DNA of 64,000 nucleotides, from NCBI GenBank assembly GCA_029933125.1, contig JAOZOU010000001.1, positions 392,702-456,701 of the forward strand, in the 5' to 3' direction. Position numbers and translations under genes: made by a program. Below are positions 995 through 28,846 of this stretch, piece by piece. Under the pieces are notes generated by a model. It saw only the letters and a list, made by a program, of their open reading frames with translations. It made no database searches and had not been told where the DNA came from. Positions within the stretch are counted from its first letter, which is position 1. Each line of letters opens with the position of its first letter. Source of the stretch: a bacterium (GTDB lineage: Bacteria > Arandabacterota > Arandabacteria > Arandabacterales > Arandabacteraceae).

Positions 995-1010
995 AGCAAG
1001 ACGCTTGCCA
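995..1010 (-). promoter_or_regulatory. Predicted sigma-54 (-24/-12) promoter for flgF-flgG.
   Basis: The minus strand reads TGGCAAGCGTCTTGCT, giving GG-N10-GC with TGGCA and TTGC elements. The -12 GC lies about 36 nt upstream of the flgF ATG. Confidence 0.5.
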
Positions 1011-1162
1011 GAGGAGAGACAAAGTGGGAAATAATCTGAGTCCAGATTATCTCATGTTATACCAAGGAATTACGTCTCTATAGGCAGTACCAGGCGAGGG
1101 TAAAGGTTTAAGGATGCTCACCCGGGTGGGAAGTTTTTTCCGCCTACGGAGGTCATTGTTTC

Positions 1163-2050
1163 TCACTCAAGGGGCTTGGCTACTTCTTCGGCAGCGGCTT
1201 GGAGGAGCTCCTTGGATGATGTGATCATTGCTGGAAGCTCATCTGAAAGCTGCCTGAGCATCTTCACATCGGGAATGTAACTGCCTTCAGGCAGACCTTG
1301 GAATTCATGAATGTGCAATGTGGTAGCTCCTTCGAGGAGAAGTCGGGAGCACCTGTCGGCTGTTGAGACGATTCCTGCTGCAAGGCTGTTGGTGCCAGCT
1401 TCGAGTGGCTTGTGGTGATATCCAACCGCATCTATTATCTCTTCGGGGAGATTCCACCTGCGACAGATCTCCATTCCAACCGCGGCATGTGTGACCCCAA
1501 TGATTTCGCCTTCTGCTCTCATCACTCCAACGGATCTTATAAGGGCTAGCATCCTTTCCTTATCTTCATCTCTAAGGGCTAAATCGATCGCGACCTTCCC
1601 CACATCATGGAGCAAGCCACAGCTGAAAGCCATACTATAGATTTGCATACTCGCCTTTCGACTTATCATTTGAGAAGCATAGGCAGTTCCCACTGAATGC
1701 TCCCACAGGCGACCGGCGTCCAGACCGTAGGCCTCAACTGCCTTTGAAAGAATATTTGAAGCTGATGCTGAGATGAGCACGTTACGGACATTTGAATATC
1801 CCAGCAAGACCAGGGCTTCAGTAACATTATAGACACGCCGGGGCAATCCAAAGTAAGCCGAGTTGGCCATGCGAAGTACCTTACCGGCAAAACCCTGATC
1901 AAGTGAGACAACCTCGGCAACCTTTGTCAGCTGAATCCTGGGATCTCTCAACATCATAAGAACCTTTTGAACACATTTCGGGAAAGGAGGAATGTTTGAA
2001 GTAAACTTAGTAAGATCAACCTGTCTCTCATCCTCGCTGGGCTTCATCAC
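1163..2050 (-). CDS. HDOD-domain signalling protein.
   Basis: The 295-aa product carries HDOD hallmarks: PPFPKCVQKVLMMLRDP, NSAYFGL, LLHDVGK and HH. It sits inside the flagellar locus. Confidence 0.75.
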   Translation of the reverse strand: MMKPSEDERQVDLTKFTSNIPPFPKCVQKVLMMLRDPRIQLTKVAEVVSLDQGFAGKVLRMANSAYFGLPRRVYNVTEALVLLGYSNVRNVLISASASNILSKAVEAYGLDAGRLWEHSVGTAYASQMISRKASMQIYSMAFSCGLLHDVGKVAIDLALRDEDKERMLALIRSVGVMRAEGEIIGVTHAAVGMEICRRWNLPEEIIDAVGYHHKPLEAGTNSLAAGIVSTADRCSRLLLEGATTLHIHEFQGLPEGSYIPDVKMLRQLSDELPAMITSSKELLQAAAEEVAKPLE

Positions 2051-2873
2051 TTTTGCTCCTCAACCAGGGTCTACGAACAATCTCCTCACCGCGAAGACTG
2101 AACTCAACTCCACCTGTCTCAACCTCATTCACGATCTGAGCAAAGCATATAGAGATCTCAACGGGCGGATGGCAAGTCTCACGGATGATTACTTTGCCAT
2201 CGTAATTGAGTGTTGCATGCTCCCTGAGTTTGATTATCTGCTCCCCTATTGTGATAACATCGCCATGAATGGCATTAGCTGCTGCTTCAAGATCCTTCAC
2301 TCTTTCGAGTCTATGGGAATCGGGCGATCCGGTTGAAAGCGACTTAAGATTCTTAAGGAGATCCAATCTCCTCCTGGTGAGCTCCATTGCCTCATGTTCA
2401 AGCTCCTCAATTCTCAACGCGATGACTGGATCAACTCCAGTCTCTATTCTTGTCATAACGGGGCGTTTGCTTCCAACCGTCACGGCATCTACCCTGCCAA
2501 GAGCGTGGATTTCACCTCCGACTATGCTTCCCTTGACAAGGACATCGCCCGAGGAGAAGATCATCCCGGAAAGTATTGAACGCTCAACTACAACGTTGCC
2601 TTTAGCTATTACTCGCTCCTTTTGAATGAAGCGACACTTAAGACTTCCATCGCAGATGATTCTGCCATTGCCACCTCCCAGGAAGCCACCATCTATGATC
2701 ACATCTCCCTTAGCCTCAATTGTAGCATCCTCGACATTGCCATAGATCGTAACATCACCTGCAACCTCGAGGGCAGCCCCCGATCTGACGCTTCCGAGCA
2801 CCTCGATGTTGCCATCATAGGTTAAGGGAACCGGCGTCCTTCTTATGTCTTCAGTTATGAGCCCCATCCTCAT
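2028..2873 (-). CDS. FapA/DUF342-like protein (flagellar assembly protein A family).
   Basis: The protein has repeated G-D/N-V/I beta-helix-type repeats (GDVTIYGNVEDATIEAKGDVIIDGG..GNVVVERSILSG..GDVLVKGSIVGGEIHALG), then a coiled-coil segment and a second short repeat block. The start was moved to an internal Met (MRMGL) to avoid overlapping the upstream PilZ gene. Confidence 0.55.
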   Translation of the reverse strand: MRMGLITEDIRRTPVPLTYDGNIEVLGSVRSGAALEVAGDVTIYGNVEDATIEAKGDVIIDGGFLGGGNGRIICDGSLKCRFIQKERVIAKGNVVVERSILSGMIFSSGDVLVKGSIVGGEIHALGRVDAVTVGSKRPVMTRIETGVDPVIALRIEELEHEAMELTRRRLDLLKNLKSLSTGSPDSHRLERVKDLEAAANAIHGDVITIGEQIIKLREHATLNYDGKVIIRETCHPPVEISICFAQIVNEVETGGVEFSLRGEEIVRRPWLRSKSDEAQRG

Positions 2874-3279
2874 CTTCGAGCTCCTGCTTGATGGGATTAC
2901 TTGTTTCTTCTGAGCCCTTGCGTCTTCTAATCTGTTCTCGGAATGCATAGCGAAGTATCTTGCCCCGCTGGACTTCAGAGAGCTCAACGAACTTTATGCA
3001 CACCTCCTTACCCCCTTCACACCTTGAGACAACCCTTGCATATGCTCTTATCTCCTCGAGGGTGTCAGGTATGGCAAATCTCAAGCAAAGGACATCGCCT
3101 TCTTCAATCAAGCTATGAGCCTCCAACCTTGCCCCTCCTCCGCCAATCTCCACCATGCTGCTCCTTGTCCACTCTCCTTCAGGAACTGAACCATCACGAG
3201 ATATGTGTATGAATTCAACCGGCAGGGAAAGCCTTATCCTCAAGAATTCACGCCTATCTGGAATGATTTTATCTGTCAT
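2851..3279 (-). CDS. PilZ-domain c-di-GMP receptor protein.
   Basis: The 142-aa product has RREFLRIR (RxxxR) and an EIGGGGARL (D/NxSxxG-like) motif. It is a single-domain PilZ located in the flagellar locus. Confidence 0.7.
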   Translation of the reverse strand: MTDKIIPDRREFLRIRLSLPVEFIHISRDGSVPEGEWTRSSMVEIGGGGARLEAHSLIEEGDVLCLRFAIPDTLEEIRAYARVVSRCEGGKEVCIKFVELSEVQRGKILRYAFREQIRRRKGSEETSNPIKQELEDEDGAHN

Positions 3280-3283
3280 AGCA

Positions 3284-3496
3284 TTACGCCTCTAAGTCAA
3301 TTCGCTTTCCTAGGTCTTTCTCCTGCGTCTCGCTTTCTTCAGGCTTCCCCTCTTCCGCTGGAGCCCTCTTCGCACCATGATTGGTGTTGCGTCTTCTGCG
3401 GTCTTCCTGCCTCGGCTTCTCGACCTTTGCTATACCTTCGGGTCTTCCTATCATGAAAGGATTATCGTACTCAATCCTCGGTTCCATAAGGATCAC
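3284..3496 (-). CDS. Hypothetical small, highly charged protein of 70 aa.
   Basis: The ORF is packed tightly between fliA and the PilZ gene on the same strand. I recognise no family. Confidence 0.25.
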   Translation of the reverse strand: MILMEPRIEYDNPFMIGRPEGIAKVEKPRQEDRRRRNTNHGAKRAPAEEGKPEESETQEKDLGKRIDLEA

Positions 3497-4252
3497 CTAC
3501 TTCGATAGGTGTGTTCTCAGTCTTCCTCGCAGAAAAAGGATGGCTTTTGAATGTATCTGTGAAACCCTCGACTCACTTATTCCGAGAACTTCACCTATCT
3601 CCTTCATGCGAAGACCTTCGTAGTAGTAAAGGCCCAATATGCTCCTTTCAGTCTCAGGAAGCTCCTTAATGGCATCAGCCAGAACCTCTACCAATTCCTC
3701 TCTTTCGAGCTTGCTTAAAGGATCTGGCCAAGCACTAGCAGCGTCTTCCTGGGTTATGTCGATTGACAGATTGCCATTCTCGAGAAGCTCCTCAAGTGAG
3801 TAAAGATCAAGGCTACTCGACGTTGCAAGCAGATGGGAAATCTCGTTTACGTCCAGACCCGATCGCTCAGCGATCTCATGGTCCTCCGGATATCTGCCCA
3901 GCTCGCGCTCAAGCTCGCTGATAGCTCTGCCGACTTGCTTGACCTTGGCCCTTATCGAATAGGGAAGAAAATCCTGCTTTCTCAACTCATCAAAGATTGC
4001 TCCTCTTATCCTGTAGCGTGCATAGGTTTCAAGCTTTGCTCCCTTCGCAGGCTCATAATCATCAATTGCCTTTATGAGCCCAACGGTGCCAGCACTTATG
4101 AGGTCAGATATATCTACACTTCTGGGAAGAAGTTCTGCGATATCCTGGGCGATGCATCTAACAAGCCACAGATACTGCTTTACAATCTCGTCCCGATCGG
4201 CAAGAGCTGTGTTTTCCTTCACTGGAGTTCTTATGTGCTCATGATTTTTCAT
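3497..4252 (-). CDS. fliA: Flagellar sigma factor sigma-28 (FliA/WhiG/SigD).
   Basis: Region 2 (DLISAGTVGLIKAIDDYEP) and the region-4 helix-turn-helix (LRMKEIGEVLGISESRVSQIHSKAI) are present in a 251-aa product. Confidence 0.9.
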   Translation of the reverse strand: MKNHEHIRTPVKENTALADRDEIVKQYLWLVRCIAQDIAELLPRSVDISDLISAGTVGLIKAIDDYEPAKGAKLETYARYRIRGAIFDELRKQDFLPYSIRAKVKQVGRAISELERELGRYPEDHEIAERSGLDVNEISHLLATSSSLDLYSLEELLENGNLSIDITQEDAASAWPDPLSKLEREELVEVLADAIKELPETERSILGLYYYEGLRMKEIGEVLGISESRVSQIHSKAILFLRGRLRTHLSK

Positions 4253-4261
4253 CCCGAATCC

Positions 4262-5329
4262 TCAGGCAACTTCATTCAAACCCTCAAATATCTTTTCGGC
4301 AATTACTTCATAGTCAGCAACAAAGATGCCATCGGTAGATCGTGCCCCTCCAGTCACATAGGTCAGGGGTACGGCACTCGATAGGGCAACCGAAAGAGCT
4401 CCGCCAATACGCGTTGCCTCATCCATCTTTGTAAGCACAAGCCCCATGTTGGGCGAACCAGGGATACATGAGACAAGGGCGAACATGTTCTGGGGATCCA
4501 TTGTTGCCTCGATGACCAGATTTAACCGCACTGAGTCAAGGGCCTTACTGAGATCAACAAGTGAACGCAGAAGGGTATCCTCAATCTTCGAAATGCCTGG
4601 CGTATCAACCAGGATTGTTGTTTTGGGATGCTTTTCGATCAATCTCTCAAGATGAGAGCATGAGTCGATATGATGAAACTTTGCCTTGAGATTCCTTGCC
4701 TCACGCTTAAGCCATATAATGTCTCGCGATGACTTCGGGCCGAGGAAGGCAACTATGGGTCTCGCCTTTCCTCTGGTTGCACAGCGTCTCGCAACCTTTA
4801 GAAGTGAAGTTGTCTTCCCTGAGCCTGAAGGTCCAACAAATATGGAGACACGTTCTGTTGGATTGACAATAGGTATGCCCTCAAGGATACTCCTCACAAA
4901 GCCTTGTTGGGATTGAGCTCTTGCGAGGTCTTCAAGTTTGATGCTGTCCCTTAAGAGCATAGGATCGAAGCCAGCCGTAAGAAGACCCCTCACAAATGAG
5001 TTTGAGCTATCAGGGCACAGATAGGCATCAGCTATTACCGATTCAACTATGTCCTGGAGACGCATCTCTATCTGCCTGAGCTCTGAAAGGATGTCGCGAT
5101 CAAGTTTCCTCATCTCAGTCAGGTTAGTTCGACTATTACTTGGCTTCGCAGAAACCTTTGCCATTTGTTCCACCTCCTCGCCCACTGCCGCAACGACTTC
5201 GACCAAATCAGCGCGACCCTTGACGCGGCGCCTCGCTGTCCCGAGAACTATAGCCTCAGGACCCATCTCACGCTTGATCTGAGTCAGAGCCTCCGGAATA
5301 GTTTGGGCTGAGAACTTCTTGATCTTCAT
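4262..5329 (-). CDS. flhF: Flagellar biosynthesis SRP-type GTPase FlhF.
   Basis: The N-terminus MKIKKFSAQTIPEALTQIKREMGPEAIVL is typical of FlhF. The GTPase motifs GPSGSGKTT and DTPG are present. Confidence 0.85.
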   Translation of the reverse strand: MKIKKFSAQTIPEALTQIKREMGPEAIVLGTARRRVKGRADLVEVVAAVGEEVEQMAKVSAKPSNSRTNLTEMRKLDRDILSELRQIEMRLQDIVESVIADAYLCPDSSNSFVRGLLTAGFDPMLLRDSIKLEDLARAQSQQGFVRSILEGIPIVNPTERVSIFVGPSGSGKTTSLLKVARRCATRGKARPIVAFLGPKSSRDIIWLKREARNLKAKFHHIDSCSHLERLIEKHPKTTILVDTPGISKIEDTLLRSLVDLSKALDSVRLNLVIEATMDPQNMFALVSCIPGSPNMGLVLTKMDEATRIGGALSVALSSAVPLTYVTGGARSTDGIFVADYEVIAEKIFEGLNEVA

Positions 5330-7388
5330 CGAATCTCACCATCCCTACTGAATGCACTTCACAGTCAGTTGTTATTTCACCAAACGAGATTACTGTTACC
5401 TTCGGCAGGCTACTTTCTATAAGACGCTTAAGCGCTAGTCTGACATTGGGAGAGCAGATGATGATCGGTCTGTGATTGCTTGCAAGCATGCTCCTCGAGA
5501 CTTTCTCGACAGCTTTGATAACTTGCTGAGCAGTCTGGGGTTCAAGTACGGCAGCTATACCACTCCGCGTTACTTGAATCGAATCAGCAACGATCTGCTC
5601 TATTTTAGGATCAACGGTGGCCGCATAAATGACACCGTCGCTGCTCTCACACATGTTACAAATTGTTCGCTGAAGCGAGGAGCGCACATATTCTGAAAGC
5701 ACATCTATGTCCTTGGTATGAGGAGCATAGTCAGCCAATGTTTCTATAATCGTTAGGGCGTCCTTGATCGGAATCTGTTCTCTGAGAAGGTTTTGCATCA
5801 CCCTGTGGACAGTGCCTAGGTTCACAGCCTGTGGGATCGCTTCTTCGATTGCTGCTGGATAATCCTTCTTGAGGGAATCGATGATATTCTGAACATCCTG
5901 TCTGCTTAGGATTTCGCTTGCATGAGCTTTTATCACCTCTGAAAGATGGGTGCCGAGAGCAACAGGTGCTTCGACGACTGTGAGCCCCATACCTTCAGCC
6001 TTGTCTTTCTCACGGGGGTGTATCCACTTTGCCATAAGGCCAAAGGCAGGATCACGCGTTTCCTCTCCTTCTATCTCATCAAGCATATCCTTTGTGCCAA
6101 TGACGAGGTACTTGCCTGGGTAAACTTCTCCTTTTGCAACCCTTGCTCCTTTGAGCCTTATCTCATATTCATACGGCCTGAGCTTGACATCATCCCTTAT
6201 TCGTATCGGGGGAACAACGAGCCCCATATCGACTGCTATCTGTCGTCTCAATCCCTTTATTCTTTCAAGGAAGTCACCACCTTCTGCCGGATCAACCATG
6301 GAGATGAGTCCATAGCCAATCGTCACCTCGAGGCGATCAACCTTGACGAGATCCTCAAGTGCTTCCTGCTTCTTTTCCTTCGGCTTAGGAGCTTCTTCCT
6401 TAGGCTCAACTGCTGTTTTCCTCGTCTTGTATCTGGCGTAGCCAGCGCTGGCAGCAACAGAGCCGAGCAGGAGAAATGGCACAGTTGGAAGACCAGGTAC
6501 AAATGCAAGTACTACAAGGGTTGCTCCCACTATCGCCAGCGGCTTATATCCTGAGAACAGCTGAGTACCAATGTCCACGCCAAGGTTCGACTGGGCAGCT
6601 GCTCTGCTCACAACTATTCCAGCGGATGTCGATACGATGAGAGCCGGAACCTGGGTGACAAGCCCATCACCTATGGTCAGTCGCGTGTATGTGCGAACAG
6701 CCTCGCCAAGAGGCATACCCTGCTGGAGAACTCCGATTGCCAGTCCGCCAATTATGTTTACGATATTGATGATGATGCCAGCAATTGCATCACCTCTTAC
6801 GAACTTGCTAGCTCCGTCCATCGCTCCATAGAAATCTGCCTCTCGGGTTATCTCAGCCCGTCTCCTCATCGCCTCCTTATCGTCGATGAGACCAGCATTG
6901 AGATCTGCATCAATACTCATTTGCTTACCCGGCATTGCATCGAGCGTAAATCTTGCGCTCACCTCGGCATTACGCTGAGTACCGCGCACAACAACCACAT
7001 ACTGAATAACTACAATGATTACGAAGATGACAAATCCAACCACATAGTTACCCTTTACAACAAAGGAGCCAAAAGCCGAGATAACTTCACCAGCATTTGC
7101 CTGTCCAAGAATGAGCCTGGTTGATGCCACATTGAGTGAGAGTCTGAAAAGGGTTACAACGAGCATGAGGCTCGGGAAGACAGAAAGCTCAAGGGGAGCC
7201 GTCACATAGATGGCAGTGAGAAGTAAGACAAGCGAGAATGCAATATTGAAGGATAGAAGGACGTCAAGCAGGAAAGTTGGAAGAGGCACTATCATGATGC
7301 CAATGATTGAGATTACGCAGATGGCAAAAACAACATCACCATGCCTCAGCAATCCATTTTGTGGTCCCAAAGTCATTGGTGTCGCCAC
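5268..7388 (-). CDS. flhA: Flagellar export apparatus protein FlhA.
   Basis: The 706-aa product has an N-terminal transmembrane domain with FGSFVVKGNYVVGFVIF and a large cytoplasmic C-terminal domain. Confidence 0.95.
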   Translation of the reverse strand: MATPMTLGPQNGLLRHGDVVFAICVISIIGIMIVPLPTFLLDVLLSFNIAFSLVLLLTAIYVTAPLELSVFPSLMLVVTLFRLSLNVASTRLILGQANAGEVISAFGSFVVKGNYVVGFVIFVIIVVIQYVVVVRGTQRNAEVSARFTLDAMPGKQMSIDADLNAGLIDDKEAMRRRAEITREADFYGAMDGASKFVRGDAIAGIIINIVNIIGGLAIGVLQQGMPLGEAVRTYTRLTIGDGLVTQVPALIVSTSAGIVVSRAAAQSNLGVDIGTQLFSGYKPLAIVGATLVVLAFVPGLPTVPFLLLGSVAASAGYARYKTRKTAVEPKEEAPKPKEKKQEALEDLVKVDRLEVTIGYGLISMVDPAEGGDFLERIKGLRRQIAVDMGLVVPPIRIRDDVKLRPYEYEIRLKGARVAKGEVYPGKYLVIGTKDMLDEIEGEETRDPAFGLMAKWIHPREKDKAEGMGLTVVEAPVALGTHLSEVIKAHASEILSRQDVQNIIDSLKKDYPAAIEEAIPQAVNLGTVHRVMQNLLREQIPIKDALTIIETLADYAPHTKDIDVLSEYVRSSLQRTICNMCESSDGVIYAATVDPKIEQIVADSIQVTRSGIAAVLEPQTAQQVIKAVEKVSRSMLASNHRPIIICSPNVRLALKRLIESSLPKVTVISFGEITTDCEVHSVGMVRFDEDQEVLSPNYSGGSDSDQA

Positions 7389-8483
7389 TTAACCTTCTCC
7401 CTTTGTTTGGGTTCCGATTACCGAATCAACTTTGTTCTTGAGTCTGTAAACATAGCTCAGCACTTCAGCTACTGCTCGATAGAGACTTTCGGGTATCTCA
7501 GCACCAACCTCAACAAGCTCATAGAGACTATGGGCAAGAGCTCTGTTCTCATAGATTGGGATACCATGCTTAATTGCAATTTCCTTTATCTTTTCGGCAA
7601 TCAGGCGCTTGCCCTTCGCAACGACCATTGGCGCATTCATGGTTTCGCCATCGTATTTGAGAGCTACAGCAATGTGAACCGGATTGGTGACAACGACGTC
7701 AGCCGTAGGCACTGCATTCATCATCCTCCGCCTTGCAAGCTCTTTCTGTGCCGCCCTTATTCGGCTCTTTATGAGGGGACTTCCTTCGAGTTCCTTGTAT
7801 TCTTCCTTAAGCTCGTGTTTGGTCATCATGAGACTTTTAGTGTGCTGGCGGCGCTGATAGGCGTAATCCGCCATGCCAAGAATAGCCAAGATCAAACCGG
7901 CTTTAAGGCTAGCAACGAATGCCTGCTTGGCAAGAAAGCCAATTGTATCTCCGATGCCACAGTCACCGAGGGAGAGATACCCATTTATCCCATTCTTTAT
8001 GGAATGGTAGAAAACCAATCCAACGAGAAGGGCTTTGGCTGAGTTTATTGCAACCATAACAAGGGATCTCATGGAGAAAAGGCGCTTGAAGCCGGAGATA
8101 GGATTTATTTTTTCGAGCGATGGTGTTATGGGCTCGGTTGAGACAAGGAAACCAACCTGCATGAAATTAGCCGCAAGCGCTATTGAAACGATCACCAGCA
8201 TAAACGGAGCGAGAATCCTTATGCCACCCACTATGGTTTCAATGGCAATCAATCGCACATCATCAGCGCTTTCAATAAGAGGAATGCTTGAAAAGCTCTT
8301 GATTGTAAATTCCGAAGCCGCACGTGTTATCCAGGGGAGAAGCAGCTTGAGAGCTACTATCCCACCAATAACGACTGCAGCCGATGTGAGCTCTGTACTT
8401 CTTGCAACCTTTCCTTTCTCTCGCGCTTTTTCGCGTTTGCGATGAGTTGGTTGCTCAGTTCTTTGTTCCTGCGATTCCTCCAT
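7389..8483 (-). CDS. flhB: Flagellar export apparatus protein FlhB.
   Basis: The N-terminus reads EQRTEQPTHRKREKAREKGKVARS. The NPVH autocleavage motif (VVVTNPVHIAVAL) is present. Confidence 0.9.
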   Translation of the reverse strand: MEESQEQRTEQPTHRKREKAREKGKVARSTELTSAAVVIGGIVALKLLLPWITRAASEFTIKSFSSIPLIESADDVRLIAIETIVGGIRILAPFMLVIVSIALAANFMQVGFLVSTEPITPSLEKINPISGFKRLFSMRSLVMVAINSAKALLVGLVFYHSIKNGINGYLSLGDCGIGDTIGFLAKQAFVASLKAGLILAILGMADYAYQRRQHTKSLMMTKHELKEEYKELEGSPLIKSRIRAAQKELARRRMMNAVPTADVVVTNPVHIAVALKYDGETMNAPMVVAKGKRLIAEKIKEIAIKHGIPIYENRALAHSLYELVEVGAEIPESLYRAVAEVLSYVYRLKNKVDSVIGTQTKGEG

Positions 8484-8487
8484 TTAT

Positions 8488-9264
8488 TTAGCCGCCTCCT
8501 ATGGCAGTCAGTATGTTCTTAAGATCTGCGTTTGTCCCAAGGATTCCCTTGGCAAGCACATATGCAAAGTAGGGGATTGAGATTGCAAGCATTGCCAGCC
8601 CCATGCTTATCTTCAGAGGAAAACCAACAACAAAGATGTTCATCTGAGGAACTGTCTTGGCAAGCAAGGCAAGTCCAACCTCAACCATGAAAATCGCACT
8701 AAGTACTGGCATCGCAACCCTTACAGCTAGCGTGAATATCCCTGCTGTTGCGAGTATAAGCTGTTTTGCTCCCTCACCACTCAGCGCTGTTACCGAGGGG
8801 GGAACCAGACTATAGCTGGCTCTGAAACTACTGAGCATTATGTGGTGTCCGTTCATAGCAAGGAAGAGCACAATCGCAAGTAAGCCTTGAAATCTTCCAA
8901 TGACTGAGACATCTGTTCTCGAAATGGGATCGAACAGCGTCGAAGAAGCAAATCCCATCTGGAGCCCCACAACGTGGCCTGCGAATTGGACTCCGTGGAG
9001 AAAGAAGTTGCAGACAAAGCCTATCATCAACCCGATGAGAACCTCTCTGATTCCTAGAAGCATGTAGGTGAAACTTGGAAATTGTGGAAGTCTGGCATTT
9101 GAACTTAGAAGTGGCATCAGAGCAAATGCAAATATAAGCGAAACCCAAACCTTCACAATCTTTGGCAGAAATTGCGAGCCAAAGACAGGTGCAACAAAGA
9201 CGAATCCACTTACTCTGAGAAAACAGAGTAAGAGCAGTTCAGGCTTTATGGTTGCTAGCTCCAT
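8488..9264 (-). CDS. fliR: Flagellar export apparatus protein FliR.
   Basis: It is a 258-aa polytopic membrane protein in the canonical fliP-fliQ-fliR-flhB order. Confidence 0.9.
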   Translation of the reverse strand: MELATIKPELLLLCFLRVSGFVFVAPVFGSQFLPKIVKVWVSLIFAFALMPLLSSNARLPQFPSFTYMLLGIREVLIGLMIGFVCNFFLHGVQFAGHVVGLQMGFASSTLFDPISRTDVSVIGRFQGLLAIVLFLAMNGHHIMLSSFRASYSLVPPSVTALSGEGAKQLILATAGIFTLAVRVAMPVLSAIFMVEVGLALLAKTVPQMNIFVVGFPLKISMGLAMLAISIPYFAYVLAKGILGTNADLKNILTAIGGG

Positions 9265-9267
9265 CGC

Positions 9268-9537
9268 TTATCTTCCTGCGGTTATCATCTTCTCAAATGC
9301 TAGAAGTGAAAATCCTGTCAGCCTTGAGATTATCCATGGCATAAAGAGTACAAGAGCTACCGCAACTGCAACGATCTTGGGAATGAATGTCAGAGTCATT
9401 TCGTGAATCTGGGTAACCGCCTGTATGAGCCCGATGATAAGTCCAGTCAAGAGGCCAAAGAGCAGCATAGGCCCTGCAACTGAAAGACAGGTAAACACAG
9501 CCTGCTTGGCTATTTCCTGACAAAGCTCTTGCGTCAT
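9268..9537 (-). CDS. fliQ: Flagellar export apparatus protein FliQ.
   Basis: The product is about 89 aa starting at the internal Met MTQELCQEIAKQAV and has two transmembrane helices. Confidence 0.85.
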   Translation of the reverse strand: MTQELCQEIAKQAVFTCLSVAGPMLLFGLLTGLIIGLIQAVTQIHEMTLTFIPKIVAVAVALVLFMPWIISRLTGFSLLAFEKMITAGR

Positions 9538-9547
9538 TGCTGACCTC

Positions 9548-10312: not shown

Positions 10313-10315
10313 CGT

Positions 10316-12166: not shown

Positions 12167-12184
12167 TGCTTACTTTGATCTCAA

Positions 12185-12922: not shown

Positions 12923-12934
12923 CTTTCACTACGA

Positions 12935-14863: not shown

Positions 14864-14939
14864 TTACCTCCTCTCTGGCTGCTTCTGTCATTCCACAGCC
14901 GGAGGGCCTCCTCATAAGAGGTCCAGCCCTTTGTAAACC

Positions 14940-15308: not shown

Positions 15309-15320
15309 GCTATCACCTCC

Positions 15321-16013: not shown

Positions 16014-16020
16014 CCCCTTC

Positions 16021-18393: not shown

Positions 18394-18403
18394 CCTCTTC
18401 CTC

Positions 18404-19072
18404 CTAGTCAGTCAAAAGCCGACTCAGTTTGGCTGCTCTTTCAGGCTCGAGTGCGGCAAGAACTTTTGCAGCATTGCGTGGCTTCATATTGACAAGCACT
18501 TGGATGGCTTCCTCATCAGACATCTTGGTCACAATTGCAGCCACGCTTGATGCCTTCATCTGCTCATAAACCTTCGCCAGTTGCTTAAACTTGTTTGTGC
18601 GATCTATCTCCTCGCTTGCCTTCTCCTCGACCTCTTCCGTTTCGGAACCAGCTACCTGCTCCTTGGCTTTGCTCTCTTGAGACTTGGCAACCTCGGGTTG
18701 AGGCTGTGTGGTTTCTGCTTTCGAGTTCCCTGCCTCAGGTTCGGCGGTCTCTGCTGGCTGTCCAGCGGTGGTATCCTCAAGTGCAGGAGCCTCAACCTGG
18801 GATTGCCGCTCGGTAGCCTGCCTCTGTTGTGTCTCTTCCACAGGAGCTTGAGACAAGTTACCATGGGTCTGTTCAGCCTGTGCTGGTGGAGTTATAACCT
18901 TTATCCTTAAAGGCTGAGGCGGCAGAAATCCCATCACATGCATGAAGAGAATGACAAAGACAACAAAGGGAACTGCGACAAGCAGAACAGCATCAAGCGG
19001 AATCTTCGATGCCAAGCCTTGCTTCTTTCCCTCTGCCTTTTCGGCATCTTCAGGTTTGACTTCATCAGCCAT
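18404..19072 (-). CDS. FlbB/YlxF-like flagellar protein with an MgtE-N-type domain.
   Basis: It has an N-terminal transmembrane helix, an acidic linker, and a C-terminal MgtE-N-like segment (VAAIVTKMSDEEAIQVLVNMKPRNAAKVLAALEPERAAKL). It occupies the ylxF slot between fliJ and fliK. Confidence 0.65.
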   Translation of the reverse strand: MADEVKPEDAEKAEGKKQGLASKIPLDAVLLVAVPFVVFVILFMHVMGFLPPQPLRIKVITPPAQAEQTHGNLSQAPVEETQQRQATERQSQVEAPALEDTTAGQPAETAEPEAGNSKAETTQPQPEVAKSQESKAKEQVAGSETEEVEEKASEEIDRTNKFKQLAKVYEQMKASSVAAIVTKMSDEEAIQVLVNMKPRNAAKVLAALEPERAAKLSRLLTD

Positions 19073-19074
19073 GA

Positions 19075-19548
19075 TTACTTCTCCTTCTTCCGGATAGGTC
19101 CATGATTATTGCGCCTATGCACTTGAGCAGCTGTTTCATCGAGAGCTGCCTGCTCCATCTTCTTGAGCTGCTTGATATAGCGCTCCCTCATCCGCTGCTT
19201 GAGCTTCTCGAGAGTTTTCTTCTCTCTTGAGCTCTCAAGCAGAAGCTCACGCTTAACCACTACATCCTCAACCGATCGCGAAACCTCCTCCCTGTGATTG
19301 GCAATCTCATCAGCCAAACGCTCAAGATAGGCATAGAAGATAAGTTTGCGCGATATATCGAGAGCACCTGCTTCCATTTCAGTAGTGAGCATGCGCTGGC
19401 AATCATCCTTGTGTTCACAGAGATTGACAAGTCGTGCCTCCTTGCGCTTGAGATCCTCCTTGGCTCGAGCCAGCGCTGTCTTTCGTATATCCTCCTGCTG
19501 CTTTTTCAAACTCACCACCGGCTCAAGTCTGAACTTAAAAGCAGCCAT
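19075..19548 (-). CDS. fliJ: Flagellar export chaperone FliJ.
   Basis: The N-terminus is MAAFKFRLEPVVSLKK and the protein is a 157-aa coiled coil lying between fliI and ylxF. Confidence 0.75.
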   Translation of the reverse strand: MAAFKFRLEPVVSLKKQQEDIRKTALARAKEDLKRKEARLVNLCEHKDDCQRMLTTEMEAGALDISRKLIFYAYLERLADEIANHREEVSRSVEDVVVKRELLLESSREKKTLEKLKQRMRERYIKQLKKMEQAALDETAAQVHRRNNHGPIRKKEK

Positions 19549-19556
19549 ACTACCTC

Positions 19557-20864
19557 CTAGGATGCTAGCTCTATCAAGCGCCTAACCGTTGTCTCATAGC
19601 TCGTTGATTCATTTATCCCCTGACGCAGGAAATTGTTGATTGCTCCAATCTTCTCAATCGCCAGATCTATTTTGGGATTGCTTCCCTTTGTATAAGCACC
19701 AATGTTGATGAGATCTTCTGAATCGCGATAGGTTGCAAGGATTTCCCTTATGCGGTTGGCTGCATTGCGATGTTCCTCCGAGACGACATCGATCATGAGA
19801 CGACTCACACTATCGAGAACATCTATTGCAGGATAGTGGTTCTGATTTGCGAGTTTGCGTGACAGCACGATGTGCCCATCGAGAATAGAGCGGACGGCAT
19901 CCGCAATGGGCTCAGTCATATCGTCACCTTCAACAAGGACGGTATAGAGACCCGTTATGCTTCCAAGCTCTGATGTGCCTGAGCGTTCGAGCAATCTTGG
20001 GAGCATAGCGAAAACACTGGGGGTATAACCCTTCGATGTTGGGGGCTCACCAATCGCAAGTCCTATTTCTCTTTGTGCCATAGCCACACGCGTTACCGAA
20101 TCCATCATGAGCATCACATCGAGCCCAAGATCTCGGAAGTATTCAGCGATAGCTGTTGCCGTCATCGCACCCTTCACCCTTATGAGGGAAGCCTCATCTG
20201 AGGTGACCGCAACTACTACCGATCTCGCAATCCCTTCCTTAAGATCCTTGTCAAGAAAATCACGCACCTCTCGACCTCGTTCACCAACAAGAGCAATGAC
20301 ATTGACATCAGCCTCGCTATTCCTTGCGATCATTCCAAGAAGAACGCTTTTGCCAACACCACTGCCAGAGAAGATGCCAACACGCTGCCCTTTACCGCAG
20401 GTTAGCATCCCATCAACAGCTCTTATGCCGGTGGCAAGAGGCTGAGTGATGCGCTTGCGGCGTAGTGGATCTGGTGCGGAATGAGATACGCTGCGCTTGG
20501 CTGGTGCATTTATGGGCCCTTTACCATCAATTGGTCTTCCAAGTCCATCGACAACACGCCCCAGTAGCTCATGTCCAACATTTATTACAAAAGGCTCTCG
20601 GGTTGCGGTTACTCGACTTCCAGGGGCTATCCCGGCAACATCGCCAAGAGGCATGAGCAGAACCTTGTCATCTCTGAAGCCCACTACTTCACAGGGAACA
20701 GCCCTGTCTCCACTCTGATTTTCAATAATGCAATTTTCACCGATGGAGACCGGCGGACCGTCAGCTTCGATAACGAGTCCAATCACCTGGCACACCCTTC
20801 CACAGAGTGTGATGGGATCAAGGGTATCGACAATCGCCATATACTTTTCAGGATCTATCTTCAT
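19557..20864 (-). CDS. fliI: Flagellum-specific ATPase FliI.
   Basis: The Walker A motif GIFSGSGVGKS and an F1-ATPase-like fold are present in a 435-aa product. Confidence 0.95.
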   Translation of the reverse strand: MKIDPEKYMAIVDTLDPITLCGRVCQVIGLVIEADGPPVSIGENCIIENQSGDRAVPCEVVGFRDDKVLLMPLGDVAGIAPGSRVTATREPFVINVGHELLGRVVDGLGRPIDGKGPINAPAKRSVSHSAPDPLRRKRITQPLATGIRAVDGMLTCGKGQRVGIFSGSGVGKSVLLGMIARNSEADVNVIALVGERGREVRDFLDKDLKEGIARSVVVAVTSDEASLIRVKGAMTATAIAEYFRDLGLDVMLMMDSVTRVAMAQREIGLAIGEPPTSKGYTPSVFAMLPRLLERSGTSELGSITGLYTVLVEGDDMTEPIADAVRSILDGHIVLSRKLANQNHYPAIDVLDSVSRLMIDVVSEEHRNAANRIREILATYRDSEDLINIGAYTKGSNPKIDLAIEKIGAINNFLRQGINESTSYETTVRRLIELAS

Positions 20865-21499
20865 TTTGCTGCTCCCAACAGAGCCTTCTCGATTACATCA
20901 ATCTGACTATCTATCTGCGCATCAACACTTCCTGTCTCACCCTCAACAAGACAGCCGCCTCGCTTTATACGCTTGTCAGGTTTGATCTCAACACCCTCAT
21001 TGCTTGTGAGCCAGCCGTTTTCATGCTTTCGCAGAATTTCGAAATCGAGGTCACTCACCCTTATCACCATGCGCTGCCTCTCAGCCAGATGGTTTACGGC
21101 GTTCTTGACTACCTCACCTATGAGGCTTTCCTCAACCTCAGCAACCTTGCCAACAATCCTTCTCGCAATCTGACAGGAAAGCTTAAGTACTGCTTCTTCG
21201 GATTCCTTCAAGAGTCGTTTCCTTTGAGAAACGAGATCGTCAACCATCGACTTGAATGCCTCTATTTGCTCTTTAATCTCGCCCTCAGTAGCCTTTGCGC
21301 AGGCAGCATAGCCATCTTCATAGCCCTTGCGGTAAATCTGCGACATGGCGGATTCGGTTTGCTCATCATCGGTCTCGCCGAGTTGCTCCTCATGAGCAAT
21401 TGCTTCTTCAGCCTTGACGGGATAAGACTCCTTAGGTGTCGGCACACGTCTTATGAGCCTAAACGATAAGGTCATCTGAGGCTCCTCCACGTCCTGCAA
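20861..21499 (-). CDS. fliH: Flagellar assembly protein FliH.
   Basis: The 212-aa product has the central YEDGYAAC-type FliH region and lies between fliG and fliI. Confidence 0.7.
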   Translation of the reverse strand: MQDVEEPQMTLSFRLIRRVPTPKESYPVKAEEAIAHEEQLGETDDEQTESAMSQIYRKGYEDGYAACAKATEGEIKEQIEAFKSMVDDLVSQRKRLLKESEEAVLKLSCQIARRIVGKVAEVEESLIGEVVKNAVNHLAERQRMVIRVSDLDFEILRKHENGWLTSNEGVEIKPDKRIKRGGCLVEGETGSVDAQIDSQIDVIEKALLGAAK

Positions 21500-22490
21500 T
21501 AACTATTTCACCTGAATCCTCAAGATTTCTTATGACCTCTATGATTGCTTGCTGAGCAGCTTCGACTTCGCTTACACGCTTGGGTCCCATGTAGTCGATC
21601 TCTTCCTGAATCATCGCTGCTGCGCGTTCAGAGATGTTCTTGAATATCTTTTCCTTTATCTTCTCGTCTGCTCCCTTCAGAGCAACTGCAAGGTTCTTGC
21701 TGTCAACTTCACGGAGCACACGCTGCATCGAGCGATCGTCAAGCAGGAGAATGTCATCGAAGACAAACATGAGTTTCCTGACCTGGCCAGCAACCTCACC
21801 ATCCTTCTCCTCAATCGCGCTCAGGATCTCATCCTCAAGTGTCCTCTCTCCTTGATTGAGAATGTCAGCAAGCGTCTTGACGCCACCCGCTACAGTCTTC
21901 TGACCACCACCTACGCCCTCGAGCTGACTCGCAAGGATACGGTTTATTTCGTGGGTAGCGTCAGGTGATATGGCATCCATAGTAGCGATCCGTAGAGCAA
22001 CCTCACCCTTTAAGCCCTCAGGCAAGGCTGCAAGAACTCTGGCAGCGAAGTCTGGCTCAAACTGAGCAACTATGAGTGCAATTGTTTGAGGATGTTCATT
22101 CTTGAGAAACTCAGCAACTGTTGGCGGACTCATCTCTTCGAGCTTGCTTATAGCTCCGGTAGTCTTCTGGCGCTTTATCCTGCCAACGATTTCGGAGGCT
22201 TTGGCTTTCCCAAGAGCTGCTTCAAGAATTTCAGCAACCTTCTCCTCACCGCCACCAGCCACCCGTGCTCCTGAAGCCATCGCACCGGTGAATTCGGCAA
22301 GAATCTGCTCCTGAAGCTCCTTTGAAACAGGTCCAAGATTTGCCATTTCCATAGCGATCTTCTCAATGTCACTTTCCTTGAGATTCTTGATGATCTTAGC
22401 CGCAGCTTCCTTGCCGAGTGTAAGCAGCACTACCGCTGCCTTTTTCGCACCCGAGAGTTCCTCCCTGGTCGCCACCTGTGCCAAGATCAC
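21459..22490 (-). CDS. fliG: Flagellar motor switch protein FliG.
   Basis: The C-terminal torque-generating domain is present (FVFDDILLLDDRSMQRVLREVD...KIFKNISERAAAMIQEEIDYMGPKRVSEVEAAQQ). Confidence 0.9.
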   Translation of the reverse strand: MILAQVATREELSGAKKAAVVLLTLGKEAAAKIIKNLKESDIEKIAMEMANLGPVSKELQEQILAEFTGAMASGARVAGGGEEKVAEILEAALGKAKASEIVGRIKRQKTTGAISKLEEMSPPTVAEFLKNEHPQTIALIVAQFEPDFAARVLAALPEGLKGEVALRIATMDAISPDATHEINRILASQLEGVGGGQKTVAGGVKTLADILNQGERTLEDEILSAIEEKDGEVAGQVRKLMFVFDDILLLDDRSMQRVLREVDSKNLAVALKGADEKIKEKIFKNISERAAAMIQEEIDYMGPKRVSEVEAAQQAIIEVIRNLEDSGEIVIAGRGGASDDLIV

Positions 22491-23998
22491 TTACCTCCTT
22501 CTACCATTGAGCTGATGACACCTGCCGCTTGATCGGGATTGCGTTCAGCGAGTCTGGCGATCTGGGCGGCAATTCGAGTTGCTTCGACATCACCGGCTTC
22601 ACTCACGCCTTTGCGACTTTCACCGCCTACAGTTAGATTGACTGAGGAGTACGAGGCGGCACCGATGATGCCAGCAACCTTTTTGATCATCTTGAGAATC
22701 ATGATGAGCGCGAAGACAAGCCCAGCAAGATAAGCACCTTTGCGGGCAATTGACAGATAGAATTGCATCCTGAGCATCTTCTCCATCCCTTGCTCTTCAT
22801 CTGCCAGATAGCTCCTGTCAAAGGCGATGCTCGCTATTTCAAAATAGTCATTACGCATATCATCAAAGCCAACAGCGCTCTTTACGATGCTTGCGATCTT
22901 GGCAAGCTCCTCATCGGAGCGCGGCACAAAGCGCTTGGTTGCATTCTCACCTTCACCTTCGGTCTCATACTTCCCATCAACCATGACAGCAACTGAAAGC
23001 CGCTCGATGTTGCCAACCTCACCAGCGATGTTTTCGATTGTCTTGTCGAATTCATAATTGGTGACAGATGATTCACTTGTTCCTCCGGCACCACCATCAC
23101 TGCTTTCAGTGCGTTCCTCACTTATCACAACCCCGCTTTCGGGGTCATTGCGCTGAATTGTTCTCTCAATCCTTTCGAGATTGAGCTCAGCTGCAACACG
23201 GACGATGCTCTTTCCGGGTCCGAGCACACCATCAAGAAGGGTTTGGGCTTTGCCCTCAAGATATGCTTCGACTTGCTGTTTGAGCTCGAGTGCATCGCCC
23301 GGCTGACCCTGGCCATTGAAGAAACCCTTCGAGAGCAAGGTACCTTTAGAATCGAGGATCGTCACACGCTCTGGATCAAGTCCCTCAACAGCGCTTGCTA
23401 CCAGATAGGCTATTCCCTCGACGTGCTTGCGTGAGAGACTGCTTGCGGGATTTGTTTTGAGCACAACCGAGGCTGTGGCTGCCTGCTGATCCTCCTTGAA
23501 GAGGGATTTCTCAGGTACCACGATGTGCACCCTTACGCCTTCGACCTCATCCATCTGCATTATCGTCTTAGCAAGCTCACCTTCGAGAGCACGCCTGTAG
23601 TTTACCTTTTGAAGAAACTCCGTCATTCCGAAGACAGTCTTATCGAAGATCTCAAAACCTACCGTTCCACTCCTGGGATAGCCTTCGCTCGCTAGCTCTA
23701 TACGTGCGTCATAGACCTTACTGCTGGGAACAAGGATTGTTCCCCCTCCGCCCGCGAGGCGATAGGGTATGTTACGTTGCTCAAGCTTCTCAACGATCTG
23801 GCCTGCCTCCTCAGGTGCTAGGCCAGAATAGAGAACAGAATAGCCAGCACGAGAGATCACCCATGCCCCAACCACCACAGCAATGATTACGGCTGCAATC
23901 GTGCCTCCGACCATGATCCTTTGGCCAGGTGTTAAGTTTTTCCAAACCGAAAAGACCCGAGGAGTTTGACCTTGTTCTGCCATGCTATCCCCCGTCAC
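22487..23998 (-). CDS. fliF: Flagellar MS-ring protein FliF.
   Basis: The 503-aa product has an N-terminal transmembrane helix, the YP domain motif (LYSGLAPEEAGQIVEKLEQRNIPYRL) and a C-terminal transmembrane helix. Confidence 0.9.
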   Translation of the reverse strand: MTGDSMAEQGQTPRVFSVWKNLTPGQRIMVGGTIAAVIIAVVVGAWVISRAGYSVLYSGLAPEEAGQIVEKLEQRNIPYRLAGGGGTILVPSSKVYDARIELASEGYPRSGTVGFEIFDKTVFGMTEFLQKVNYRRALEGELAKTIMQMDEVEGVRVHIVVPEKSLFKEDQQAATASVVLKTNPASSLSRKHVEGIAYLVASAVEGLDPERVTILDSKGTLLSKGFFNGQGQPGDALELKQQVEAYLEGKAQTLLDGVLGPGKSIVRVAAELNLERIERTIQRNDPESGVVISEERTESSDGGAGGTSESSVTNYEFDKTIENIAGEVGNIERLSVAVMVDGKYETEGEGENATKRFVPRSDEELAKIASIVKSAVGFDDMRNDYFEIASIAFDRSYLADEEQGMEKMLRMQFYLSIARKGAYLAGLVFALIMILKMIKKVAGIIGAASYSSVNLTVGGESRKGVSEAGDVEATRIAAQIARLAERNPDQAAGVISSMVEGGK

Positions 23999-24018
23999 TT
24001 GAGATCAATTTCCGTTAA

Positions 24019-24327
24019 CTAAACCGTGATTCTTGAAAGCTCATGATAGGTTTCGAGAATCCCATTCCTTATCTGGACAAGCAATTCGATCGCCAGATTT
24101 GCCTTGTTCACAGCCATGATGACGTCATGGACATCATTTATGTTGCCCGATGCAAAGTCCTCTATTGCCCTGTTAGCATCTCCTTCAGCCTGAACAGCCT
24201 CTTCGAGCACCCCTTTGATTATCTTTGTAAAAGATTGAGCCTTACCTGGTTCAGCCTGTGGCACCTCAGGTTTGGGCTTGAAAATGTCAGGATGCTGAAT
24301 GATGCGGTCGATGCGTATATCCGACAT
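24019..24327 (-). CDS. fliE: Flagellar hook-basal body protein FliE.
   Basis: The product is about 102 aa from the internal Met MSDIRID, with the conserved C-terminus DVHDVIMAVNKANLAIELLVQIRNGIL. Confidence 0.8.
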   Translation of the reverse strand: MSDIRIDRIIQHPDIFKPKPEVPQAEPGKAQSFTKIIKGVLEEAVQAEGDANRAIEDFASGNINDVHDVIMAVNKANLAIELLVQIRNGILETYHELSRITV

Positions 24328-24337
24328 CCTTACCCTC

Positions 24338-24841
24338 CTATATCTCGAGTGCCTTCTCCACCATAGACTTAAAGGCATCCATGGCAGCAATGTTGGCTTC
24401 GTAGGCTCGAGTTGCTGCCATCATGTCAACCATCTCCTCAACGGGATTGATATCCGGGTAAGCCACATACCCATCGCTATTGGCATCAGGATGACTTGGA
24501 TCATAGACGTACTTGACACGGTCAGGTGGAGCTTCGACAACCTCAGCCTCAATTGTCGGTTCCTCGCTCTCAACAGCTCTTGAGACATCCCTGCTCATGT
24601 GCCTTATGTGCTGAGGAGATGTGATCCTGAGAGCAAGCCGTGGAGAACTCGCTTTCACCCTATGAGTCCTCGTTTGCGTCTTTTCACGAACCCGTATTGT
24701 CTTCTTGCGGTACGGAAGCCCATCCTTGGCTCGAGTTGTCTCAGCATTTGCAATATTTGAAGCAATTGCTTCCATCTTTTTGCGTTGTGCTGCAAGTCCA
24801 CTGCCTATCGTCCTCATGATTCCAAACAAGAGGTCCGACAT
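24338..24841 (-). CDS. flgC: Flagellar basal-body rod protein FlgC.
   Basis: The N-terminal motif LAAQRKKMEAIASNIANAETTR and the C-terminal motif VDMMAATRAYEANIAAMDAFKSM are both present. Confidence 0.9.
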   Translation of the reverse strand: MSDLLFGIMRTIGSGLAAQRKKMEAIASNIANAETTRAKDGLPYRKKTIRVREKTQTRTHRVKASSPRLALRITSPQHIRHMSRDVSRAVESEEPTIEAEVVEAPPDRVKYVYDPSHPDANSDGYVAYPDINPVEEMVDMMAATRAYEANIAAMDAFKSMVEKALEI

Positions 24842-24857
24842 CAGCTAATCCTCCTCA

Positions 24858-25259
24858 TCAAGGCTTTCCGGTTATGGCTGTTCTTAAAGTTGCGAGTCTT
24901 CGTGACATGAGCTTGGCAACGGTCTCGTAGGCAAGCTGTGCATCAGCGAGTTCAGCAGCACTTCTTTCAAGCTGATATGTCTCATCCCCTCCAGCCTCAT
25001 AATCGATAACTTCTCTGATCTGCCCCTCGCTTCGCGAAGTCTTGAGAGATCCAAGGTGGCGAGGATTGGTTTGCTTGAGCTCGACCTTGCCTAGTGCCCT
25101 GTTGAGCTCGCCTGTGAACTCAACTCTGCGAGGTATATATTCGTCACTCCCTGCATTCGCCAGGTTGCGGGCAGCAACTTTCTGCCTTGCTGCCTGTACA
25201 TCCAGCAAATGCCTAAGCAGGTCAACCGTGTTCTCGTTGTTTATGCCAATTCCGCTCAC
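24858..25259 (-). CDS. flgB: Flagellar basal-body rod protein FlgB.
   Basis: The N-terminal rod motif is present (AARQKVAARNLANAGSDEY). It uses a GTG start after a GAGGAGGAG ribosome-binding site. Confidence 0.85.
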   Translation of the reverse strand: MSGIGINNENTVDLLRHLLDVQAARQKVAARNLANAGSDEYIPRRVEFTGELNRALGKVELKQTNPRHLGSLKTSRSEGQIREVIDYEAGGDETYQLERSAAELADAQLAYETVAKLMSRRLATLRTAITGKP

Positions 25260-25303
25260 GACTCCTCCTCAACATATTCACATTCCAGCGCTTTTAGCCT
25301 ATG

Positions 25304-25319
25304 AGCAAGTTCTGCGCCA
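25304..25319 (-). promoter_or_regulatory. Predicted sigma-54 (-24/-12) promoter upstream of flgB.
   Basis: The minus strand reads TGGCGCAGAACTTGCT, giving GG-N10-GC about 45 nt upstream of the flgB start. A sigma-54-dependent activator gene lies immediately upstream. Confidence 0.5.
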
Positions 25320-28699: not shown

Positions 28700-28846
28700 A
28701 TTGTTGCCTGAAGTTTAGCTTTTTTGGCAGGAGCCTGAAAGAAAGAGCTCAAATAGGCACATTTTTCCGCTGTGGTGGTTGCAGTCAAAGGGGGAAATTC
28801 TTGCCTGTTAGTATCTTGACCCCAGATGCCAAAGCAGATCAGGTCT

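Follow-up and report, generated by a model that had tools for sequence, protein, structure and literature searches.

Predicted sigma-54 promoters of the flagellar cluster

The flagellar gene cluster in the window analyzed here, a 64-kb stretch of contig JAOZOU010000001.1 (metagenome assembly of an uncultured bacterium) with a G+C content of 49.4%, is likely driven by two enhancer-dependent sigma-54 promoters acting together with the NtrC-family regulator encoded next to the cluster. All coordinates refer to this window, and features are on the minus strand unless another strand is given. The first promoter, PflgB (TGGCGCAGAACTTGCT, 25304..25319), precedes flgB, and the second, PflgF (TGGCAAGCGTCTTGCT, 995..1010), precedes flgF. 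Each has one mismatch to the consensus TGGCACN5TTGCW, and both are located where an earlier reading of this DNA (the original prediction) had placed them. The predicted transcription start of PflgB is near 25293 and that of PflgF near 984; the resulting leaders of 34 nt and 23 nt contain the Shine-Dalgarno sequences GAGGAGGAG and GGAGG, respectively. The distances from the GG dinucleotide to the start codon (59 nt for flgB and 48 nt for flgF) are typical for sigma-54 promoters. A conserved sigma-70-type promoter was not found at flgB, where the promoter is of the sigma-54 type.

Both sites are on the coding strand in non-coding DNA. Specifically, the 28-kb cluster contains only two gaps of at least 100 nt, between the regulator gene and flgB (117 nt) and between the HDOD gene and flgF (201 nt), and one site is present in each of them. 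The joint chance expectation for this placement is approximately 1.2e-5. The motif itself is not enriched in the window, with 5 matches (at most one mismatch) versus 2.9 expected from shuffled sequences. The non-random signal is the placement of the sites and not the frequency of the motif. A third sigma-54 candidate (4316-4331), located 64 nt 5' of fliA within the flhF coding sequence, is not retained even in the 78%-identical relative and was regarded as a chance match. Internal sigma-54-like sites in fliE (24080-24095) and flgC (24791-24806) are not conserved.

Conservation in relatives, which the original prediction had proposed as a check, was examined in seven flgB lineages (the window and the six orthologous contigs L082 and L084-L088) and four flgF loci (the window and L094, L095, and L096, the relatives that reach flgF with synteny, from a metagenome scan with FliA). 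The two 16-mers were retained throughout: TGGC-N7-TTGC is invariant in 7/7 regulator-flgB spacers and in 4/4 flgF spacers, and the flanking sequences have diverged. In L094, L095, and L096, TGGCA(A/G)G-N4-TTGC(T/A) is found at the place equivalent to PflgF and is the sole site on either strand that scores 10 of 11. Judging from these alignments, the two 16-mers appear to behave as real sigma-54 promoters, and the use of sigma-54 is very likely.

The gene layout of the relatives is also retained. L082 and L084-L088 carry a small open reading frame (ORF), a PAS kinase gene, and the regulator gene followed by flgB-flgC-fliE-F-G-H-I-J-MgtE_N-fliK-flgD-Flagellar_put-flgE, and the regulator orthologue adjoins flgB in every orthologous locus examined. 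The loci obtained by the FliA scan keep the synteny flhA-flhF-fliA-PilZ-FapA-HDOD-flgF-flgG. The orthologue group of the regulator shows 62-86% identity and consists entirely of proteins from uncultured bacteria. The next group, at approximately 53% identity, includes Zixibacteria and Calditrichota, the nearest named relatives.

A scan of a genome collection with the regulator recovered only paralogues with at most 53% identity and missed the close relatives. In 8 of 80 paralogue loci, a gene for a sigma-54 enhancer-binding protein (EBP) is located directly 5' of flgB/flgC-fliE-fliF-fliG. The genomes concerned include metagenome-assembled genomes (MAGs) of Nitrospirae, Zixibacteria, and Pseudomonadota, as well as Limisphaerales and other Verrucomicrobiota. 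A GG-N10-GC site is present next to flgB in all eight of these distant genomes and matches 9-11 of the 11 consensus positions; most of the sites are near-consensus, as exemplified by TGGCACCGGCCTTGCA and TGGCATCATCGTTGCT. The Zixibacteria locus additionally has CCGGAAACGATTTCCC approximately 100 bp upstream of its sigma-54 site. Two loci labelled "Promethearchaeota" (L008) and "Bifidobacteriaceae" (L043) nevertheless carry bacterial flagellar clusters and look like mis-binned contigs.

Candidate upstream activator sites

The DNA upstream of both promoters contains a shared 21-mer, GCGGAA.AAA..TCCCACCCG, at 25413-25433 and 1123-1143. It occurs twice in the 64 kb, versus 0.04 expected, and both copies are at these promoters. 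On the PflgB side, the candidate enhancer, or upstream activator site (UAS), spans 25404..25452 in the 3' end of the regulator coding sequence, with the stop codon following 20-60 nt later. It consists of two GGAA-N5-6-T(T/C)C sites (25440-25452 and 25413-25433), 21 bp or two helical turns apart, and also holds the inverted repeat GTGCGGAAG-N14-CTTCCGCAC. Both GGAA-N5-6-T(T/C)C sites are invariant blocks in the alignment of the flgB lineages. In 7/7 lineages, the UAS-like element starts 113 ± 1 bp 5' of the TGG of the promoter; the chance of a match to the UAS regular expression at a given position is approximately 6e-4. This spacing is held although the position of the regulator stop codon varies and the spacer length ranges from 75 to 152 bp, and the interval of about 100 bp between UAS and promoter consists of diverged sequence with essentially no indels.

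On the PflgF side, the candidate UAS (1123..1152) consists of GCGGAAAAAACTTCCCACCCG and an upstream half-site and is located just after the HDOD stop codon. The flgF relatives have GGGCGGAAA-N3-4-TTTCCGCCC palindromes at -139 to -143, and the copy in the window is at -132. Between this UAS and PflgF there is a box (1060..1072) resembling an integration host factor (IHF) site (reverse complement TACCAAGGAATTA, compared with WATCAANNNNTTR). With at most one mismatch, such a box occurs in all four flgF promoters (at -60/-62) and in 3/7 flgB promoters (at -52); a role as a bend site is suggestive only. The arrangement of UAS and promoter corresponds to the textbook anatomy of an enhancer-dependent promoter, with protein binding at the UAS being predicted.

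Gene content and predicted transcription units

Family assignment by NCBIfam and Pfam scans indicated a contiguous flagellar cluster with all named genes on the minus strand. The order is flgB-flgC-fliE-fliF-fliG-fliH-fliI-fliJ, a gene for an MgtE_N protein (ylxF-like), and fliK-flgD-TIGR02530-flgE, followed by fliL-fliM-fliN-fliO-fliP-fliQ-fliR-flhB-flhA-flhF-fliA. The gene order given in the original prediction was thus borne out, with every named gene present and in its place. The fliK call rests on a weak Flg_hook match. The first gene, flgB, is located at 24858-25259, flhF at 4262-5329, and fliA, which encodes sigma-28 (TIGR02479 FliA/WhiG, 248 bits versus a cut-off of 190), at 3497-4252. 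No flhG/MinD-like gene is present between flhF and fliA in the window or in the relatives, and flhF is followed directly by fliA; such an arrangement is unlike those of Bacillus, Geobacter, and most polar flagellates. Chemotaxis genes (cheY, cheA, cheW, and others) are absent from the cluster. FliN has 142 amino acids and is covered by the FliN domain alone, and there is no FliY-type switch protein.

Downstream of fliA, the genes run on without a real gap through a 70-aa ORF, PilZ, FapA, and HDOD. No junction between flgB and the HDOD gene exceeds 76 nt, and we infer from this operon structure that the 28 genes form one 24.1-kb transcription unit (1163..25259) with fliA near its end. Terminator-like sites were not detected on the coding strand in the scanned regions 1-4400 and 24800-29000, both spacers included, and an Rfam search of 1-29000 gave zero matches. 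Beyond the second spacer, flgF (254-961; TIGR02490 FlgF, 184 bits versus a cut-off of 178.5) and flgG form the distal-rod operon. The flgG gene starts at 241 and leaves the window after its first 80 codons (2-241), and its N-terminus is 79% identical to L095 FlgG. The kinase and regulator genes constitute a separate upstream unit outside the flgB operon. The original prediction had placed both genes at the head of the operon; their upstream location is correct, whereas their membership in the operon is not.

The 70-aa ORF (3284-3496) is unannotated and rich in Lys, Glu, and Arg, and it fills an apparent gap of 217 nt between fliA and PilZ. It has no family match; it is 69% identical in L089, and its position is weakly conserved in other relatives. 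The PilZ, FapA, and HDOD genes (1163-3279) close the flagellar operon, and functions in cyclic di-GMP (c-di-GMP) signaling or polar assembly are suggested for them. A second HDOD gene adjoins a T2SSE ATPase gene with an MshEN domain at 47733-50584 on the plus strand.

Regulator and kinase

The regulator (25377..26777) is a sigma-54 enhancer-binding response regulator with REC-AAA+-HTH_8 architecture (Pfam REC, Sigma54_activat, and HTH_8). It has the acceptor residue D58, a Walker A motif GETGTGK at 167, GAFTGA at 214, and a Walker B motif LLDEI. The cytoplasmic histidine kinase (26808..28091) has PAS-HisKA-HATPase_c architecture with the H-box HEIRNP and lacks a transmembrane segment. Both proteins are conserved partners of the flagellar cluster in the relatives.

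The regulator scores below every named NCBIfam equivalog cut-off. The best match is AtoC (466 versus 714 bits), and the flagellar models FlbD (382 bits) and FlgR (317 bits) have cut-offs of 750. In a comparison of the regulator with the Protein Data Bank (PDB), Aquifex NtrC4/NtrC1 and ZraR scored highest, and FleQ and FlrC ranked lower. By its sequence, the regulator is a generic NtrC-family protein that works like a flagellar EBP but does not score as an orthologue of FlrC, FleR, or FlgR. It probably activates the promoters through the conserved enhancer, where its binding is predicted.

A sigma-28-like promoter upstream of the kinase and regulator genes

The kinase and regulator genes are preceded by s119 (28095..28454), which encodes a small helical protein of 119 amino acids, and a sigma-28 (FliA)-like promoter, TAAAC-N-GTCGATT (gcTAAA-N16-GTCGAT), is located 5' of this unit at 28691..28717. 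The motif gcTAA(A/G)-N16-G(T/A)CGAT(A/T/C), with an upstream A-rich tract, is found ahead of the small ORF, kinase, and regulator genes in 7/7 lineages (at 8021 in L082 and L084, 8194 in L085, 8097 in L088, 7817 in L086, and 7688 in L087), and it is the best-conserved block in the alignment of the upstream unit. The regular expression TAA[AG]N15-17G[ATC]CGAT[ACT] gave 10 matches in 532 kb of strand sequence, 7 of which are at the orthologous position. The sigma-28 identity of this promoter is suggested by its likeness to TAAA-N15-GCCGATAA. A candidate sigma-D/sigma-28-type promoter is not absent from the system, and the framing of the original prediction is not supported in this respect. A canonical sigma-28 promoter was also looked for downstream of fliA and was not found; the 217-nt "gap" at that place is the conserved 70-aa ORF. 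The combination of a conserved sigma-28-like promoter ahead of the kinase and regulator genes with fliA in the sigma-54 operon suggests a positive-feedback loop, and feedback of FliA on this unit is plausible, with the chances evenly balanced.

A 79-aa ORF (28460-28699) between the promoter and s119 has no equivalent in the relatives. Because the -10 element of the sigma-28-like promoter overlaps its ATG, this ORF is probably not a gene but a leader of approximately 240 nt. The leader contains the palindrome GCGGCAAGAATTGCCGCC (28587..28604), which resembles the UAS half-sites, and similar GCGGAAA.A.TTGCC elements are present in L082, L084, and L088. A function of the palindrome as an autoregulatory site is possible but speculative. 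A syntenic orthologue of s119 with 122-129 amino acids is present before the kinase in all relatives. The protein evolves fast; Pfam, NCBIfam, and the PDB yielded no match, and a word-based search yielded only two homologues. A role as a kinase partner or modulator is conceivable. An additional 128-aa ORF in L086 and L087 contains TGGCATGTGTGTTGCT, a strong sigma-54-like site (at 8217 and 8088, respectively) located 73 nt 5' of the s119 orthologue. The kinase-regulator unit of this sub-lineage may also be autoregulated by sigma-54.

Proposed mechanism and alternative explanations

In the mechanism that we propose, the cytoplasmic PAS kinase, presumably in response to a signal, would phosphorylate D58 of the adjacent NtrC-family regulator. 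The regulator would then assemble on the tandem GCGGAA-type sites located 5' of the -24 element at a distance of approximately 113 bp for flgB or 132 bp for flgF, possibly assisted by an IHF-like bend, and would open the sigma-54 closed complex using ATP and the GAFTGA loop. PflgB is predicted to drive approximately 24 kb and 28 genes, comprising the MS-ring, C-ring, export-apparatus, proximal-rod, and hook genes and fliA, and PflgF would drive the distal-rod genes flgF-flgG. FliA produced from the operon would then probably transcribe the kinase-regulator unit via the sigma-28-like promoter, closing a positive-feedback loop, and presumably also the late genes elsewhere in the genome.

Several observations weigh against this mechanism or parts of it. 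A search for an RpoN box found none in the 64-kb window or in the collected loci of the lineage. The peptide encoded over the flgB UAS (EEDIS...AE..S) is itself conserved, and the conservation of the DNA could be partly at the protein level. The flgF UAS has no fixed distance to its promoter (-132 to -143), and helical phasing with the flgB site is lacking. As for the feedback loop, the spacer of the sigma-28-like promoter is 16 nt versus the canonical 15, and the loop needs a basal start, for which the sole sigma-70-like match, at 28761-28788, is weak and non-conserved. Finally, the adjacent regulator is the predicted protein to bind these sites, and another EBP might bind them instead.

The last point leads to the possibility that an EBP encoded elsewhere, such as a master regulator of the FleQ, FlrA, or FgrM type, activates the promoters, with the adjacent pair fine-tuning them or controlling something else. 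Most studied sigma-54 flagellar systems do have a separate master EBP (PMC3930126), Geobacter uses FgrM, and only 64 kb of the present genome is visible. The adjacency of an EBP gene and flgB is, on the other hand, kept in 7/7 orthologous loci and in eight distant genomes from several phyla, the UAS is at a fixed 113 bp within the adjacent regulator's own gene, and UAS-like palindromes are also found in the leader of that gene's unit. We therefore consider activation by a different EBP unlikely. The same low probability is assigned to a scheme in which most transcripts of the cluster would arise by read-through from the promoter or promoters upstream of the kinase-regulator unit (sigma-28-like and perhaps sigma-70), in the sigma-A/sigma-D manner of Bacillus, and sigma-54 provides a conditional boost. 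The kinase-regulator unit is co-oriented with flgB and 117 nt upstream of it, the coding strand between them is free of terminator-like sites, the sigma-28-like promoter of the unit is conserved, and the B. subtilis flgB-sigD operon has a sigma-A promoter as well as a sigma-D-type promoter (PMC2245950). However, -24/-12 elements and a UAS spacing that are so strictly conserved point to strong selection on initiation by sigma-54, and such read-through would add to the proposed sigma-54 mechanism rather than exclude it.

The shared GCGGAA...TCCC elements could alternatively mark gene ends, as RNA hairpins or terminators, or serve an unrelated DNA-binding protein, instead of being enhancers. The flgF-side element is located just after the HDOD stop codon, forms a perfect GGGCGGAAA-N3-TTTCCGCCC hairpin in relatives, and is overlapped by terminator-like matches on the plus strand. 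This explanation is nevertheless improbable: the flgB-side copy is inside a coding sequence, there is no T-run and no terminator called on the coding strand, and the conserved distance is that from the element to the promoter and not to the stop codon. The notion that the two 16-mers are chance matches without promoter function, with which the unenriched motif count in the window would agree, is effectively refuted by their conservation (7/7, 4/4, and 8/8), their placement (~1e-5), and the single 10-of-11 site in the loci of three relatives. The enhancer-dependent sigma-54 mechanism with the adjacent regulator as activator remains the explanation we favor.

Comparison with known systems

In the fla/che operon of Bacillus subtilis, the genes between flgB and flhF and on to sigD are ordered as in the present cluster. 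Both systems have a long operon with flgB first and a sigma-28-type gene near the end, and a response regulator and a sigma-D-type promoter (in the window, a sigma-28-like candidate) acting upstream. Unlike B. subtilis, the present cluster lacks che genes and flhG, has FliN instead of FliY, and continues with PilZ-FapA-HDOD after fliA. Its main promoters are of the -24/-12 type with upstream enhancers, and the B. subtilis regulator is not an EBP. In B. subtilis, the main promoter is of the sigma-A type, a sigma-D-type promoter is located upstream, and DegU acts on the flgB promoter (PMC2245950).

Geobacter sulfurreducens shares the same core order (flgB-flgC, fliL-M-N-P-Q-R-flhB, and flhA-flhF-fliA-flgG) with fliA under sigma-54 (PMC2725144). 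RpoN promoters have been predicted 5' of flgB and of flhA-flhF-ParA-fliA-flgG-flgG-flgA, and the RpoN promoter of fliL-flhB was verified by primer extension (PMC2725144). Geobacter also requires the RpoN-dependent EBP FgrM, its master activator, for its flagellum (PMC8844916). The Geobacter genes are distributed among several sigma-54 units at two loci, with ParA/FlhG between flhF and fliA, whereas one promoter precedes 28 contiguous genes in the window. In addition, the EBP gene in the window encodes a response regulator and stands, together with the kinase gene, directly 5' of flgB. In comparative surveys, motility genes from different phyla have been linked with sigma-54 and its activators (PMC3162934), and surveys with position-specific scoring matrices predicted sigma-54 flagellar promoters in Opitutia, Planctomycetia, Deferribacteres, Thermodesulfobacteriota, and some Bacillota (PMC12316311). 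The flgB-fliA gene order is not specific to Firmicutes, because Geobacter has the same core order together with RpoN promoters, and sigma-54 on this order is no new combination. The original prediction of an unusual mix of Firmicutes-type synteny with Vibrio/Pseudomonas-like control is accordingly not supported (PMC2725144, PMC12316311).

FlrBC of Vibrio, FleSR of Pseudomonas, and FlgSR of Campylobacter and Helicobacter activate only the genes of the rod and hook, once the MS ring, the rotor, and the flagellar type III secretion system (fT3SS) have been produced from other promoters (PMC7064773). They co-occur with flhF-flhG (PMC7064773, PMC3930126), and flhG is beside flhF in 20 of the 21 polar flagellates studied (PMC7064773). 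The present system resembles them in pairing a cytoplasmic kinase with an NtrC-family sigma-54 activator dedicated to flagellar genes and in belonging to a genome that encodes FlhF (PMC7064773, PMC3930126). It differs in that flhG is not beside flhF, and in that fliF, fliG, fliM/N, fliPQR, and flhBA share one promoter with flgBC and flgDE, with no conserved internal promoter. The label "FlrBC-like" in the original prediction is therefore apt for the architecture of the two-component system; it does not extend to orthology, as the regulator failed the FlgR and FlbD cut-offs, or to the wiring, as early and middle genes here appear, from the operon structure, to be under one sigma-54 promoter. 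Since the early genes would share a sigma-54 operon with the rod and hook genes, the two-component system would be placed at the top of the hierarchy and not at a checkpoint.

The locus is a well-supported new case of the known control of flagellar genes by sigma-54 and an EBP, and its wiring is a notable variant, not a surprising hybrid. Nothing established is overturned. It adds an uncultured relative of the FCB (Fibrobacteres-Chlorobi-Bacteroidetes) group to the lineages with this type of control and provides a clean comparative case in which the promoter, the enhancer, their fixed spacing, and the adjacent activator are all conserved. The layout with an EBP gene, a sigma-54 promoter, and flgB recurs in several little-studied phyla. 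Its wiring differs from the hierarchy in Vibrio, Pseudomonas, and Campylobacter and bears on the evolution of flagellar transcription programs. We put forward only tentatively that the two-component system is the sole master switch, acting through sigma-54 on a single super-operon so that the MS ring, rotor, export gate, rod, hook, and FliA are made at the same time, with FliA transcribing the kinase-regulator genes and closing a sigma-54/sigma-28 loop. If so, it would represent a natural "simultaneous" program in a bacterium bearing FlhF and may resemble the ancestral state discussed by Burnham et al. (PMC7064773), in which the early genes were not yet separated from those of the rod and hook. 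The shared location of an EBP gene upstream of flgB suggests that such a sole-switch arrangement may extend to Verrucomicrobiota, Nitrospirota, and Zixibacteria.

Other features in the window

Secreted enzymes with Por_Secre_tail (type IX secretion system, T9SS) and FlgD_ig domains are encoded at 28899-31232 on the plus strand and at 37883-40693 on the minus strand, as well as at approximately 2000-6000 in L086 and L087, and a DUF6754 gene is also present. Por_Secre_tail, FlgD_ig, and DUF6754 point to an FCB-group-like lineage. A peroxiredoxin (AhpC/TSA) gene at 36893-37600 has a single in-frame TGA (37340-37342) at the position of the peroxidatic cysteine, and a GGCAGCG-GTC-GCTGCC hairpin is located approximately 16 nt downstream of this codon. 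The gene probably encodes a selenocysteine peroxiredoxin, with the hairpin as its selenocysteine insertion sequence (SECIS) element, and is probably not a pseudogene.

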